Source: a virus. From it: a stretch of 11,708 nucleotides of DNA. A program made the translations under genes and the position numbers. Positions 261-6,470 of the stretch are shown here, one piece after another; within the stretch, counting starts at the first letter, position 1, and every line of letters begins with the position of its first letter. The notes beneath the pieces are model-generated. The model saw only the letters and a program-made list of their open reading frames with translations, did not search any database and was not told the origin of the DNA. Location of the stretch: UHGV virus genome UHGV-0100572; one strand, 5' to 3'.

Positions 261-2822
261 TTATATTTTCTTAATATTATTAATGCACCAACGGAGATAT
301 GCGCACTCTAATACAAGCGCCTCGTCATATCGTATCCCATAGCGATTACCAGCCTTATTTTTAAGTCGTAATTCTCCTGTTTCATATATCTTCTCTATTT
401 GTTCTCCAAATTCATTCACCTCAATTTTTGAGGAAAAAACAGGCTCATAGCTATCATCCCATTCATCGTAACAAAGAATTCCATATGCAAATGGGTCTAT
501 TCCTTCTGATTCAAAGGCTTCTTTTACTCTCTGAGCAATAACTCCGAAATGTATCCTTGCTTTGTCCCCTTTCTCTTTTACAGCATCGGTAAACTTATAC
601 TGCATAAAATTGACTTTACCCCATGCCTTTAAAATCTCCTCAGGAATCTCCTCTTTTTCTATTTTGGCGCGTTCATCAGATGTGTTAATGCTTCCTGTCG
701 AAGCATAAACTTGATTCCAACGTTTCTCAGGTATTCCACAGTTCCCGCCAGAATCATCTGTTGGATAAATATGTTTTCCTGATACTGCATTGCCATCGCT
801 TGTAACCATGAATTTTGTGTTTCCGGATATGCTCTGAACCTGAAAACTAGCATCAGTTTGCGCAAGAATAGATCCTGCAGGCGCTCTCTTAATTCTCGCA
901 TAATTAGGATTGTCAATTGAACCAAGAAGAATTTGTGATTCCTGTTGTGTTGATTCAGATAGTATTCGTAAATCTCCAAATGGCAATTTGGTATTGCTTC
1001 GAGAATCTGCAGAGTTAAACAACATTGTGTCGCCGTAGCGAAGTGTTGTGTATGTCAGAGCAAATGGAGCATGAGACTCGATAATCTCCATTAGCCTGTG
1101 ATTTGTAGTGGCACACAAACCAAAAAATGTATTACTTGTCTGATTAGATGTTATTGGCGTGCCATCTCTCATCCTTACCTTAAACGGGTTTTCTATCATG
1201 CACCCCAAAAATGTATCCCGTGCAGAACGGTCAATTCTCACGCAAAAAGGAGCATCGCTCTGGAATCTGGTTCCTATATAACGATGTCCGTGTATAGCTT
1301 TGCTTACATTTCCTCCCAACCCGTCAATATTAAAAGCTCCGCCTACATCCCAATCAGTTAATGGGTCAGGAGAAGTTTTCATATCAACAAGTCTGCGCTT
1401 GGTATGATGATTAGCCCCAAATATTTGACTATTTATGATAACAAAATCAGAAAATCCACCGGCTCCACGATCATCTGGAATAAGTTTATTTTCTACAGGA
1501 TCATAATAATTTTCATATCCTTCCGGAGCATATGAGTCATGCCCAGGAGCAGGAGAAGCACCAAAGACATTTACCCCCCATAAACCACCAGATGTAAACA
1601 CACGATCAAGAATGCAACCATCACTACCATCACCCCAAATACCTCGTGGATATGAATTACCAGTTCGATAGCTTTTAAATCTACCTGCACCAGAAGGTTG
1701 AGTAACATCGAACCAAATATTTGCTTTTCGATGGTATCCAATAACTGCAATATCAATAAGTTGAGTATTACAACGGCATCCATTAAAAATACCGACATCC
1801 CAATCAGCACCCAAGTTGTCAATGCTGTCTGTGTATTCACCATCAGGGCCACTTTCTGGCGGGTAAACTTTTGTTCTCACTGCAAAGTGCTCTAGCTGAA
1901 CGCCTTCTGCTTGAATATTAATATTTACCGAAATTGCCTCATCCTGAGCATCACCAGAACCTGAGCGATACTTCCGTCTGGTACGTATCCTTTTTGTGCC
2001 AGTACCAACAAACATTAATGTTGAGCAATCAACCCAATTAAATACTGGCCCGATATAATGAGGAACGATACTCCCATTTTCACTATATTGATTAAGTGCC
2101 TGATATCCATATCCCCTCCCGGAACCAATAATTCTTTGACCATGAGTTAGTAGTTCCAGTTCAAGATCACAAATAAATACTCCCTCCGTCAGATAAATAT
2201 GCTTTCCTGTATCAAGAGCAGCTTGTATTGCGAGGCCGTCAATAGATTGTTCCAGTGAAGTAGCAAATGGATAAACCACCCTGGCTAATGATAGAGAAGA
2301 AAATTTCTCTGATAGTTTATGTAATGTCCCGTCACCTATAGCACCGAAATCTCTGATACTTACAAAATCTAGGTTTTTTGAATGTTGACTTCGTTGTATT
2401 GCTCCAGCAAGTGGTTGCTTAATAAATACATTAGAGTCATCAACTAATTGACCAGAGTTTTCATGTTGAAGGAGATGTCGCAGTTGATCGGGGTCATACT
2501 TCAGCACATTCTGGAAATAGAACTGCTGTACGCCATACGCATCGTACACAGCCATAGAATGACCTTGCACAGTTACGAACTTGGCAATCTGTCCGTTATA
2601 TACCGGATATCCAGCAGCGTTAATGATGATTGGTTGCGAAACAGGAACGTGAGAACCGTCTTCGTTCTCCACATAAACCTGAATCTGGTTTTCAGGATTT
2701 ACAGGGTCAGTGTCAATTTTGCCGATATAAATTTTGCCATTGGCTACGGCTTTAAAAGAACGTGCCATAGTGAAGAGTTGCGAAGGCATCGATACGATCA
2801 CATTGGCTGTAATGTCTGTCAT
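261..2822 (-). CDS. Tailspike protein: P22 gp9-like N-terminal head-binding domain, beta-helix depolymerase-like receptor-binding domain, C-terminal peptidase-S74-type intramolecular chaperone domain
   Basis: 853-aa ORF with ATG at 2822-2820 and GGAG 8 nt upstream. Residues 1-113 (MTDITANV...KYDPDQ) closely match the P22 tailspike head-binding domain as I recall it. A DFGAIGDG motif typical of pectate-lyase-fold beta-helix depolymerases lies near residue 160. The C-terminus has a TSDERAK motif (S715/D716) like the auto-cleavage site of endosialidase-type chaperone domains. Confidence 0.9.
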
Positions 2823-2922: not shown

Positions 2923-3825
2923 TCAGTAGTTATGTACTGAAGGAGGTAATTCTTTATTCTTAAGTCTCATCCATGCGGAAAGATTCGTTGGTCCGTCTGG
3001 CTCATTAATATCAACATCTCGTGTATGGTTGATTAAAACATCTCTCGCCATTCCGATAACATACGAGAACTCATGACCGTAGTCGTAGCATCTGCCGGAA
3101 TAGTTCGATTGAATTTGTTTTAATGCCGGATACAGTTCGCGGAATAATGCCTGTGAGCGGTTGGCATAATCCCATAACCATACAAGGCTGTTTGCTTCTT
3201 TTGCAGAAAGCTCGTTTGCTTTCTTCTCTTGCTTGCCGATGAACTCACCTTCAAGCACTACCCTGTGGATGTACTCTACTGCTTGCGGTATCTGAGATGC
3301 ATCAAGCTCTTCAATACTTTCCACATTGAAACGCTGATGAATCATTGCATAAGCTTCTGGGTACATTAGATGCTTTTTGCTGACCAGCATATTTACAGCA
3401 TCACGAAGCGGAGTCCTGTCATCAACAGATGTTTTCTTACGTGCATTTTCTGCCTTTCCCTTCGTCCAGTAGTCATGCAGCACAGTAAAGCATTCTTCCT
3501 GGTACTGAATCAGTTTATCACGGATGTCAGCACGAACTTTCTCAGGGTTGATGCTGAACAGCCATCCATTTAACTTCTTCAAAGGAAGGCAGAGTAGCTT
3601 ACGAAGCTTACCATCAGCGGCAACCATGTTCATATGAACACAGTTGAATTTGCTAATCTGCTTCATGAGTTTTGTTTGCTGCGTTGACCAGCTCATTCCG
3701 AGGTTTTCAACGATTGGCTTCATCGCAACATATGCAACTCCGGCAGCCATGGCGGTGATAATTTGCTGACCGTTGAATGGCACGTAAGAGGTGTTCACTG
3801 CTTCTAAAATTGCTATACTATTCAT
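2923..3825 (-). CDS. ant: Antirepressor Ant (P22 immI antirepressor family)
   Basis: 300 aa from ATG 3825-3823 ([22 protein letters not shown]...), with GGAG 10 nt upstream. The N-terminus matches P22 Ant as I recall it. The ORF-track start at 3855 is a TTG adding 10 residues and is less likely. Gene order arc-ant-tailspike is as in P22. Confidence 0.85.
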
Positions 3826-3896
3826 GTTGGTTTTTCTCCAAGGATTTACCGACAACCGAAGCCCTAACTGTTACCGCAGTTGGGGCTTCAACTTTT
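3826..3896 (+). ncRNA. sar: Candidate sar-like antisense RNA covering the ant ribosome-binding site
   Basis: Extended -10-like TGcTATACT at 3811-3819 on the plus strand, inside the first ant codons. About 60-70 nt downstream is a hairpin (3858-3868 pairs with 3879-3889, one G-U pair) followed by aacuuuu. The predicted transcript is antisense to the ant GGAG and start codon. P22 encodes a 68-69 nt sar RNA at the equivalent place. Confidence 0.4.
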
Positions 3897-4112
3897 CACT
3901 TCTTTAAAGTGCCTACCTTCTACAGTTGCTCTGAGATAAAAATTCTTATCTTTACCGTTTAGTGCTTCCCAAGCATCAACAATGCACTTATTACAGATGT
4001 GGACTTCTCGATAACCAATAGCTTTCCTGTCAATATTAGTGAACATAACAGCTTCTTTATCTGTCAATGTGGATGCATGACAGAAGTCGCAATCTATATA
4101 AGATACCTTCAT
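3888..4112 (-). CDS. Small hypothetical protein with two CxxC pairs (zinc-ribbon-like), inserted between arc and ant
   Basis: 74-aa ORF. Its ATG (4112-4110) overlaps the arc stop as ATGA. A GAGGGG Shine-Dalgarno lies about 8 nt upstream. CDFC at residues 8-11 and CNKC at 40-43. I do not recall a gene at this position in P22. Confidence 0.5.
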   Translation of the reverse strand: MKVSYIDCDFCHASTLTDKEAVMFTNIDRKAIGYREVHICNKCIVDAWEALNGKDKNFYLRATVEGRHFKEVKS

Positions 4113-4267
4113 ACCGTTATCCCCTCTCTCTTCAGGCTGTCCATCACTCGCTTGTAAATCTCAGAGTTAACAGATCGCCCGTTCTCTTCCGCCACCTTAC
4201 GCACCAAATCCAATACTTCTTTAGGCCACCGCAAATTGAACTGCGGCATTTTGCTCATTCCTTTCAT
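4109..4267 (-). CDS. arc: Arc repressor (ribbon-helix-helix)
   Basis: ATG at 4267-4265 gives MKGMSKMPQFNLRWPKEVLDLVRKVAEENGRSVNSEIYKRVMDSLKREGITV (52 aa), near-identical to P22 Arc as recalled. GAGGTG Shine-Dalgarno upstream. The longer 73-aa ORF in the track begins at an ATG inside the Arc operator. Confidence 0.9.
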   Translation of the reverse strand: MKGMSKMPQFNLRWPKEVLDLVRKVAEENGRSVNSEIYKRVMDSLKREGITV

Positions 4268-4283
4268 ATTCACCTCACAATAT

Positions 4284-4300
4284 AGGTCCACCGTGGACCT
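4284..4300. promoter_or_regulatory. Mnt operator (Omnt)
   Basis: 17-bp palindrome aggtccaccgtggacct, matching the P22 Mnt operator as I recall it (AGGTCCACGGTGGACCT, central base inverted). It covers the predicted Pant transcription start. Confidence 0.85.
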
Positions 4301-4301
4301 A

Positions 4302-4330
4302 TTGAGAATATAGTAGAGTGCTTCTATCAT
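4302..4330 (+). promoter_or_regulatory. Candidate Pmnt promoter, divergent from and overlapping Pant
   Basis: Plus strand ttgaga (4302-4307), 17-nt spacer, tatcat (4325-4330), 27 nt upstream of the mnt ATG. Hexamers are weaker than Pant; placement by analogy with P22. Confidence 0.35.
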
Positions 4331-4335
4331 GTCAA
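4307..4335 (-). promoter_or_regulatory. Pant promoter driving arc, the small CxxC ORF and ant
   Basis: Minus strand reads TTGACA (4335-4330), a 17-nt spacer, then TATATT (4312-4307). That is a consensus -35 with near-consensus -10 at ideal spacing. Confidence 0.7.
4310..4330. promoter_or_regulatory. Arc operator (Oarc)
   Basis: atagtagagtgcttctatcat is the reverse complement of the 21-bp P22 Arc operator ATGATAGAAGCACTCTACTAT as recalled. It sits between the -35 and -10 of Pant. Confidence 0.85.
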
Positions 4336-4357: not shown

Positions 4358-4612
4358 ATGGCTAGAGACGATCCGCACTTTAACTTCCGTATGCCTTTGG
4401 AAGTAAGAGAAAAATTGAAATTAAGAGCAGAGGCTAACGGAAGGTCAATGAACTCTGAGTTATTACAAATCGTTCAGGATGCTCTCTCAAAGCCATCATC
4501 AATTGTAGGCTATCGAGACGAAGCTGAGCGAGTCGCGGATGAGCAATCTGACGTTGTTAAGAAGATGGTCTTTGAAACGCTGAAAAATATTTATAGCAAA
4601 AGTAAGTTATAG
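4358..4612 (+). CDS. mnt: Mnt repressor (maintenance of lysogeny, represses Pant)
   Basis: 84 aa, MARDDPHFNFRMPLEVREKLKLRAEANGRSMNSELLQIVQDALSK..., near-identical to P22 Mnt as recalled. Divergent from arc with the two operators between. Confidence 0.9.
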   Translation: MARDDPHFNFRMPLEVREKLKLRAEANGRSMNSELLQIVQDALSKPSSIVGYRDEAERVADEQSDVVKKMVFETLKNIYSKSKL

Positions 4613-4661: not shown

Positions 4662-5381
4662 ATGAAAAAAAGCAATGGACTCACATTAAAACTTGACGGA
4701 ACCACCCCTGGCCAGCTGTCAATGGCTAAGTTGGTCAAGTATATGTCTGCTCTCGTAGATCTATACGGTTCTGCAGATTCTGTTCACTTCGACTGTGTAA
4801 GTGAAGGATCGGCTGACTTAAATGCATGGGTCGATAATGATATTTGTTATAACGCTGTCATAGCAAGGGCCTCTCTCTCAGCCAAAGAGAAATCACCCGC
4901 GTATCAAAAAATTGTTAATTTACTGGAACATGATGGTTTTTCAGCGAAACTACTCGGACGAAACCACTCAACCATTATCGCATTCCCGCGAGTAAAAAAG
5001 GAGCCAATCCCTTTACTCATAACAAAAACGTCAGAAGTTCAAGGAAGGCTATACAGTGTTGGCGGAAAAGACAACTCAATACCTGTGCGTATTGAGGGAG
5101 CCAACGGTGAAACATTCAAGTGCGAGGCAACCCCTGATTTGGCGGCAGCTCTTGGGTCCCATCTATTCAAATATATTAGGGTTAAAGGAGATGGGTGCTG
5201 GGAAAAAAAGAACAACAAATGGGAGCTAAAGAAACTAAAAATAACTTCATTTGTATTGCTCAAAAAATCATCACTCAAGGATGCTATTAATGCTATCAAG
5301 CAAGTTCCTGGAGATCAGTGGTCCGAGGAACGCGATGTTGATTCAATCCTTAGGACTCTGAGGAAGATAAATTGCGAGTAA
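4662..5381 (+). CDS. Hypothetical protein, 239 aa; upstream partner of the PIN-domain gene
   Basis: ATG-initiated ORF 49 bp after mnt. No recognisable motif (no Walker A, no hydrophobic segments). Its last 10 nt overlap the next ORF. AT-rich relative to the flanking late genes, by eye. Confidence 0.65.
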   Translation: MKKSNGLTLKLDGTTPGQLSMAKLVKYMSALVDLYGSADSVHFDCVSEGSADLNAWVDNDICYNAVIARASLSAKEKSPAYQKIVNLLEHDGFSAKLLGRNHSTIIAFPRVKKEPIPLLITKTSEVQGRLYSVGGKDNSIPVRIEGANGETFKCEATPDLAAALGSHLFKYIRVKGDGCWEKKNNKWELKKLKITSFVLLKKSSLKDAINAIKQVPGDQWSEERDVDSILRTLRKINCE

Positions 5382-5920
5382 TTTTAGATACCAATATTCT
5401 GGTATACCTACTATCAGATATAGAACACGATTATAGATTATCTGACCCTATACTTGGTTCTGAGATTCCAGATGCCAAAAGAAGAGCAGAAGCTCTTGTT
5501 GATCGAATAGATAACAAGAACGGGACAATCATCGTTCCAACTCCTGTATTGGCGGAGTTTTTAGTTGGAATCCATAAAGATTACCAACAAGAAAAACTGA
5601 ATGTTATCAAATCGTTATCGTGCTTCGAGACTGTATCATTTGATGAGTTGGCTGCTATTGAATGCGCATCGATACCAACATTAAAAGAATTAAGGAAAAT
5701 TAGCACAGAAGGTACAGCAAATAAAATTAAGTTTGACAGACAAATAATAGCAATTGCAAGAGCAATTAATGCTGACGAGGTATGGACTCATGATAAGGGA
5801 GTGTTTGAGCGTTGCAAAAGTCTCAATATTCCTGTGTTCACATTGTCATCAATAGAACCAATTCCGGTTCAAAGTCTCATGGAGTTCTTACACGATTCAG
5901 ACGATCAGAGATTACACTAA
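5372..5920 (+). CDS. PIN-domain protein (VapC-like putative ribonuclease), 182 aa
   Basis: N-terminus MRVILDTNILVYLL with the hallmark acidic residue at position 6. Further candidate acidic residues in VLAEFL and NADEVWTHDKG. TTG start at 5372 preceded by GAGGAAG with a 5-nt spacer. There is no in-frame ATG that would preserve the PIN N-terminus. Confidence 0.7.
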   Translation: MRVILDTNILVYLLSDIEHDYRLSDPILGSEIPDAKRRAEALVDRIDNKNGTIIVPTPVLAEFLVGIHKDYQQEKLNVIKSLSCFETVSFDELAAIECASIPTLKELRKISTEGTANKIKFDRQIIAIARAINADEVWTHDKGVFERCKSLNIPVFTLSSIEPIPVQSLMEFLHDSDDQRLH

Positions 5921-5984: not shown

Positions 5985-6470
5985 GTGGACAAACCTTTAT
6001 CTCACTCCAAACCATCTGGTATCCTGCGTAAAACTAAGGAGGTTGGTGTGTTTGGTATATTAACGAGAAGCAAGATAAAAAAATTAAGGGCAGAACTCGC
6101 CGAAACACAAAAACTGGCTTCACATTTTTACAAAATGAAATACGACGCTGAAGAGCGTGCATTTGTTGAGTTATGCGATTTATCTATTCGTATGGGAGTA
6201 GAGCCAGATGTAGCGGCAAAAACCCAACAAGGCATTGATATACTTGCAGATGTTGTTTTAAACAGGCAATATGCGTTTTATCTAAACGAGAAGGCCATTC
6301 AGATTTACTCTCAAATCTTCCTCCTAGAAAAAAGAAGAGGAACTCACGATCGAGAAGAGTGGTTAAATGAAGTTGTTAAAAAATCTGGCTGGGAAGTTGT
6401 TTCATCAGAGCTACCTCTTATTTGTGCTGATTTAATCGAAGAGGCAAAAGAGCGCCTATCCGATGGCTAA
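5985..6470 (+). CDS. Hypothetical protein, 140-161 aa depending on start
   Basis: ORF track starts at GTG 5985. An in-frame GTG at 6048 has a strong AAGGAGG Shine-Dalgarno 5 nt upstream and is the more likely start (6048-6470). No recognisable motif and no transmembrane segment. Stop at 6468-6470, 25 bp from the convergent gp16 stop. Confidence 0.6.
   Translation: MDKPLSHSKPSGILRKTKEVGVFGILTRSKIKKLRAELAETQKLASHFYKMKYDAEERAFVELCDLSIRMGVEPDVAAKTQQGIDILADVVLNRQYAFYLNEKAIQIYSQIFLLEKRRGTHDREEWLNEVVKKSGWEVVSSELPLICADLIEEAKERLSDG

Follow-up and report, generated by a model that had tools for sequence, protein, structure and literature searches.

The locus analyzed here raises the question of whether the short interval opposite the start of the phage antirepressor gene ant encodes an antisense RNA of the sar type and whether such an RNA might regulate both ant and a small gene inserted upstream of it, as a sequence-only reading of the DNA had proposed. 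The window, i.e., the whole stretch of DNA that was analyzed, comprises 11,708 nt of the viral genome UHGV-0100572. With a probability of roughly 0.93, we assign positions 3826-3895 of the plus strand to an ortholog of P22 sar that acts as in P22, within the immI region of an E. coli P22-like prophage. Homology, synteny, conservation of the promoter and the terminator, and covariation were all observed. P22 sar has been characterized since 1987 (Liao et al. 1987; Wu et al. 1987; Schaefer & McClure 1997, as cited in a section of the epsilon34 genome paper, PMC2629481) and forms an Rfam family; the RNA described here belongs to that known family in a known context, and its finding in itself matters little. 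The sole part of the locus that might repay more work is the slot between arc and ant, which holds variable small genes and meets ant at the sar terminator.

The P22-type immI region was complete in the window, with mnt, the Pant and Pmnt promoters, arc, ant and the tailspike gene (Table 1). A consensus scan recovered Pant on the minus strand (TTGACA-17-TATATT, 11 of 12 consensus positions) and Pmnt on the plus strand (TTGAGA-17-TATCAT, 10 of 12), both of which were collinear with the promoters annotated in P22. In a megablast search, a 701-bp core showed 91.6-95.3% identity to P22, epsilon34 and their relatives over 66-67% of its length, and the middle part of the core was found in no phage record. 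The whole core stretch was present in 23 of 5,426 complete E. coli genomes, with 19 of 20 at 99.9% among the matches listed. Since the whole stretch occurs in E. coli genomes, the window represents an E. coli P22-like prophage, whereas P22 is a phage of Salmonella.

Table 1. Features of the window referred to in the text, with the evidence for each assignment.
Feature	Coordinates	Strand	Evidence
Tailspike (853 aa)	261-2822	-	
ant (antirepressor, 300 aa)	2923-3825	-	Pfam P22_AR_N 2.9e-45, P22_AR_C 3.2e-29; alignment to P22 ant
Psar, within ant codons 3-12	3791-3819	+	Aligns to P22 BK000583 'sar promoter' (L001 689-717)
ant ATG	3825-3823	-	ORF list; P22 alignment
sar antisense RNA, about 68-70 nt	3826-3895	+	Rfam RF00262; aligns to P22 sar misc_RNA (L001 724-793)
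sar 5' stem-loop	3826-3853	+	3826-3831 pairs with 3848-3853; Rfam structure and RNAfold agree
sar terminator hairpin (14 bp, loop UACC)	3858-3889	+	Aligns to P22 'sar terminator' (L001 756-793)
orf74, 74-aa CxxC...CxxC gene	3888-4112	-	ORF list
arc (53 aa)	4109-4270	-	Pfam Arc 1.8e-27; alignment to P22
Pant (-) / Pmnt (+), divergent and overlapping, with operator region	4279-4335	-/+	Consensus scan
mnt repressor gene	4358-4612	+	Pfam Arc 5.7e-27, Repressor_Mnt 4.8e-13

A scan of the whole window against Rfam gave a single match, to the sar family (RF00262), at 3826-3893 on the plus strand, covering model positions 1-68 of 68 with a score of 95.5 bits (E = 6.3e-20; gathering score, 43). This full-length match was collinear with the sar annotations of P22 (BK000583) and epsilon34, in agreement with the sar-type antisense RNA that had been proposed, and the predicted size of about 68-70 nt and the placement opposite the ant leader were as in P22, as had likewise been claimed. 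Non-conservation of the P22 promoter and terminator had been named as grounds for giving up the proposal; in the alignment, 28 of 29 positions of Psar and 68 of 70 positions (97%) of the RNA were identical, and the proposal stands. The locus thus resembles that of P22 in the position of sar, its promoter, the RNA sequence, the two-hairpin fold and the mnt, arc and ant partners. The RNA differs from that of P22 at two positions, where C stands for T (3850) and A for G (3866); G.U pairs of P22 thereby become a G-C pair in the 5' stem and an A-U pair in the terminator, respectively. The 70-nt RNA was predicted to fold into two hairpins with a free energy of -33.3 kcal/mol (z = -7.36), and none of 200 shuffled sequences folded as well. 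The loop of the 5' hairpin holds the anti-Shine-Dalgarno sequence UUUUUCUCC.

The extended -10 element claimed for the plus strand was present at 3811-3819 as TGCTATACT, 7 nt before the sar start. Psar, a promoter predicted by homology, lies in the 5'-terminal codons of ant, faces Pant and consists of a poor -35 hexamer (GTGTTC, matching the consensus at 2 of 6 positions), a 17-bp spacer and the extended -10 TGcTATACT. The pattern TGNTATACT, for which 0.24 chance occurrences were expected in the window, was observed twice; the second match, at 6236-6244(+) within the 5985-6470(+) ORF, was accompanied by no Rfam match or other support. The element TTGCTATACT was retained in related loci that had been retrieved independently by means of the inserted protein. 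A simple sigma-70 consensus scan did not flag Psar, because its -35 region is poor. As the consensus scan had recovered Pant and Pmnt and missed Psar and the sar terminator, the latter two were assessed by their homology to the features annotated in P22.

These properties of Psar bear on the alternative that sar is an inactive relic at this locus, its promoter having lost strength through either the A-to-C change of the -35 region or the longer convergent Pant transcript. The -35 with its two consensus positions and the failure of the consensus scan to flag Psar are what such a reading would lead one to expect; more broadly, the poor -35, a promoter and a terminator that consensus scans pass over, and a short U tract all count against an active sar here. 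However, the A-to-C change, at 3796, is the sole difference from the annotated P22 Psar and is shared with epsilon34, in which Psar is annotated, and the resulting GTGTTC variant also occurs in 53 of 134 related loci. Further, the extended -10 is intact, both substitutions in the RNA strengthen stems, and the Psar-sar type was found in 285 of 5,426 complete E. coli genomes at a coverage of at least 80%. We therefore regard loss of sar function as very improbable. The insert does lengthen the zone between Pant and the point of Pant-Psar convergence, which could change any promoter interference.

The hairpin at which the RNA would end was present, although its dimensions differed from those given by the sequence-only reading. 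Instead of 11 bp at about 45 nt past the -10 element, the stem contains 14 pairs (3858-3871 with 3876-3889; 12 Watson-Crick and two G.U) closed by a 4-nt loop and begins 38 nt past the -10 element, or 32 nt past the start of the RNA. The tail described as U-rich is in place (AACUUUUCAC; AACUUUU at 3890-3896 in the RNA) but contains just four U; the U tract of P22 has three. A simple terminator scan did not flag the sar terminator, as was also the case for P22.

To compare sar among related loci, we used a search pattern that joined the extended -10 element to the base of the terminator with 21 fixed bases. It matched three species-representative genomes (Pectobacterium, Pluralibacter and Serratia) and at least 119 viral contigs (L015-L133, from IMG/VR), and the set of 134 loci consisted of the pattern matches including the window and loci fetched earlier. 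The invariance of the -10 element and of the lower 5' arm of the terminator in this set is due to the pattern, which fixed them. Rfam detected sar in every related locus tested, including diverged copies scoring 44-57 bits, and all 30 distinct sar variants folded into the same two hairpins. Compensatory double changes were observed at positions 4 and 5 of the 5' stem (G-C, A-U or U-A) and at positions 12 and 13 of the terminator stem. A MAFFT alignment of the 30 variants was set aside, as the different sequence types were offset from one another by one column in the 3' arm of stem 1; because this misplacement would mislead pair counts, pairs were tallied from the folds of the individual sequences. 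Such a tally favors pairing, but the compensatory changes are nonetheless directly visible in the sequences.

Because inverted repeats in DNA can form hairpins on either strand, the conserved structures might instead work on the minus strand, as a leader structure of the ant mRNA or as an attenuator between orf74 and ant, with no functional RNA on the plus strand; the complementary strand does fold, at -21.9 kcal/mol. Its z score, however, is -2.7, against -7.4 for the plus strand at -33.3 kcal/mol. The conserved G.U pairs, at positions 8, 9 and 14 of the terminator and positions 1, 3, 4 and 6 of stem 1, exist on the sar strand only and turn into A.C mismatches on the other, where the hairpin is followed by GGUUGUCGGUAAAUCC and lacks a U tract. 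The plus strand, moreover, has the invariant extended -10 element at the correct distance upstream. For want of a U tract and because the G.U pairs do not transfer, we rejected a terminator or attenuator on the minus strand, and we give hardly any credence to a minus-strand function of the hairpins in general.

Variation among the loci was unevenly distributed between the two hairpins. The 5' hairpin (3826-3853 in the window; compared across L004-L133) fell into at least four sequence types that track the ant leader, and the terminator hairpin was nearly invariant. The 5' types may represent specificity groups for sar acting in trans between co-resident P22-like phages. In RefSeq/PGAP annotation, only coding genes were listed under the Psar-sar match in the 285 E. 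coli genomes, and sar was not listed as an ncRNA; in the genome Ecol_AZ146 (L003), for example, sar at 6127-6194 carries no ncRNA annotation.

The position of the RNA relative to the ant start was examined by homology with the annotated P22 start, which places the 5' end of sar at 3826, one base after the ant ATG (3823-3825). The ant Shine-Dalgarno sequence, GGAG, is the complement of 3836-3839 and is located inside the sar target. Since sar begins one base past the ATG, it covers the Shine-Dalgarno sequence and the leader but not the start codon; thus, the claim that the RNA is antisense to both holds for the former, and the ATG is only abutted.

In P22, sar is convergent to the Pant mRNA and, by pairing with the leader of ant, prevents translation of Ant from being initiated (PMC12197685; PMC11016777), and sar reads have been detected during P22 infection (PMC13397905). 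A 68-69-nt transcript that represses Ant translation has been established for P22 only (PMC12197685; PMC13397905), and it is by analogy with that work that sar would be made and would repress translation here. According to this model, Psar would fire from inside the first ant codons opposite the Pant mRNA, which would carry arc, orf74 and ant, and the transcript would end about 68-70 nt on, at the 14-bp hairpin. Being fully complementary to the ant leader and displaying the anti-Shine-Dalgarno sequence in its predicted 5' hairpin loop, sar would pair with the ant mRNA and hide the ribosome-binding site, so that less antirepressor would be made and lysogeny would be set up and kept more readily. 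The presence of orf74 shifts arc away from the terminator and leaves sar, Psar and the sar target unchanged.

The phages P1 and P7 likewise possess a small antisense RNA, c4, which acts at the ribosome-binding site of an antirepressor gene to block its translation (PMC12197685). In sequence and fold, c4 is unrelated to sar, and it lies outside RF00262. It is processed from the transcript of its own target and, unlike a convergent RNA that is complementary throughout, acts via short segments of complementarity.

The DNA between arc and sar was compared with that of the phages. Relative to P22 and epsilon34, the window contains extra DNA from about 3896 to about 4125, and orf74 is absent from both phages at this place. 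The insert amounts to +219 bp, with the 162 bp of arc becoming 381 bp of arc plus orf74. The ATG of orf74 overlaps the arc stop codon (ATGA) and is preceded by GAGGGG. The C-terminal residues of Arc are REGITV here and KEGRIGA in P22 (junction GAGGGGATAACGGTATGA), as the insert supplies both these residues and the orf74 Shine-Dalgarno sequence. The epsilon34 sar (gp72, EU570103), from the nearest phage record (95.3%), has the same GTGTTC -35 variant and the same architecture as the window; it differs within 3826-3895 at 3841, 3850, 3866 and 3873, and epsilon34 has no gene between arc and ant.

Homologs of orf74 with 81-85% identity were found in E. coli, Citrobacter freundii and Salmonella, and all copies with readable context were flanked by arc and ant and had sar encoded on the other strand. 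The family is small, with 7 clusters among 5.8 billion proteins, and an exhaustive profile search of 1.84 billion representatives returned 5 proteins and no annotated distant relative. No match was obtained by tblastn in 50,697 phage records, a PDB sequence search gave a chance match only, and PHROGs and PADLOC gave nothing meaningful. The copies differ mostly at third codon positions, and both CxxC motifs with their cysteines are invariant, which together indicate that orf74 is a real gene. The Salmonella copies (L010 and L011; 2935-3159) have been called as 52 aa, and their full frame is intact, with a GTG start that overlaps the arc stop (GTGA).

The match of the orf74 product to Pfam PF06689 (zf-C4_ClpX) scored 18.9 bits, below the gathering score of 27, and all 7 family members gave weak sub-threshold matches to this model (best E, 7.7e-4). 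A first AF2 model, built from a shallow alignment, was unusable (pLDDT 49.6). A second one reached moderate confidence (pLDDT 65.8), and its top PDB match in Foldseek was the ClpX zinc-binding domain (2ds5_A), with a non-significant E of 0.82 and a TM score of 0.65 (target-normalised).

The RNA does end within the inserted gene, as had been predicted: the 3' end of sar falls in the last codons of orf74, and the terminator overlaps the orf74 stop, whose TGA is the complement of 3888-3890, with TC as the last two bases of the stem. It had been suggested from this arrangement that the RNA may regulate both genes. In such a case, pairing of sar over the orf74 stop would also alter expression of orf74 and perhaps of arc, a route for which would be cleavage of the duplex by RNase III that shifts the stability of the upstream arc-orf74 fragment. 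This dual role appears unlikely to us. It is favored by the overlap of the sar 3' end with the orf74 TGA and the last two sense codons, and by the shared Pant transcript of arc, orf74 and ant, in which an ATGA overlap couples orf74 to arc. On the other hand, the overlap comprises just 6-8 nt at the 3' end of orf74, about 220 nt from its ribosome-binding site; being so remote, it cannot block initiation of orf74, and to judge from the sequence, sar control of orf74 at that step is unlikely. Any effect of sar on orf74 would be limited to what happens at the 3' end of the gene, where cleavage of the duplex or a disturbance of ribosomes during termination, for example, is possible. The same geometry was also found for whichever gene lies upstream in members of the family, arc of P22 included, and as it is common to the family, it was inherited rather than gained with the orf74 insert.

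This shared geometry became evident when the interval between arc and ant was compared across the 134 loci. In about 71 of them, arc directly adjoins the terminator, and in about 57, a gap of 170-270 bp separates the two. The ORFs in the gap were of at least eight unrelated kinds, 46-89 aa in length: besides orf74, these were three CxxC...CxxC proteins, a second Arc-like protein, a predicted membrane protein, and two proteins of 73 and 80 aa. Among the CxxC proteins, that of L053 (60 aa) is a genuine zf-C4_ClpX protein, with 43 bits in Pfam, and hhalign compared the orf74 product with the other CxxC proteins of the slot at a probability of 17% (E = 0.0015). All of the ORFs share one stop, the TGA of the terminator stem, and each ORF that was recovered in full has a start that overlaps the stop of arc. 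As the TGA is the same across these ORFs, a stop inside the sar terminator is a family trait and not peculiar to the window. Where arc abuts sar, its stop is usually 4-5 nt beyond the stem. In P22, it is arc that ends at the sar 3' end, with a TAA that follows the stem at a distance of 4 nt and is in frame with the TGA position, 6 nt from it, whereas here orf74 occupies that place, with a TGA that overlaps the last two stem bases.

These observations led us to the tentative idea, which we hold to be doubtful, that P22-like phages reserve the junction of arc and ant for small genes that can replace one another and, where a full ORF is present, are translationally coupled to arc, with the sar terminator serving as a recombination joint and the cassette proteins acting in the immI circuit. 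In such a slot, the cassette proteins could modulate the stability of Ant or of a repressor via ClpXP, and ribosomes that terminate inside the sar target could tune sar pairing. As orf74 and its counterparts show, the arc-ant interval, which is usually drawn as plainly intercistronic, is a recurrent site of small accessory genes co-expressed with the antirepressor. Should these small zinc-ribbon proteins take part in the choice between lysis and lysogeny, a textbook regulatory module would gain a component. According to a section of the epsilon34 genome paper, the 'ant moron' is in rapid flux; the arc-ant small-gene slot as such is not described there (PMC2629481).

An arrangement similar to that of the window was found in the coliphage CUS-3 (CP000711), which has the same order of arc, a small CxxC gene, sar and ant. 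The CUS-3 sar scored 84.6 bits, and the small gene likewise overlaps the arc stop and ends at the terminator TGA; its product, however, is a different protein of 67 aa, and the 5' hairpin of its sar is of another sequence type. The interval 1277-1768 of CUS-3 (L134, CP000711.1) is annotated solely as 'bsq2; boundary sequence', and it holds an unannotated Arc-like ORF (end 1504), the 67-aa CxxC ORF (1501-1704) and sar (1699-1766, minus strand). CUS-3 was described in a section of the epsilon34 paper as apparently lacking arc (PMC2629481); judging from these ORFs, the 'missing' arc looks like an annotation gap.

Two further observations concern the flanks of the immI region. The tailspike ORF had only a partial match in the nearest E. 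coli prophages, and the best E. coli genome covered 72% of the window at 97.3%, with an annotated tailspike of 2,082 nt; sequence comparison thus points to an exchange of the receptor-binding part of the tailspike. On the 3' side of mnt, in the 4662-5920(+) region, a 239-aa ORF gave no Pfam or PADLOC match and overlaps by 10 nt the start of a gene for a 182-aa PIN-domain protein (Pfam PIN, 4.1e-10). Within the 'ant moron', the 239-aa ORF and the PIN protein may constitute an accessory module of two genes, of a toxin or defence-like kind.
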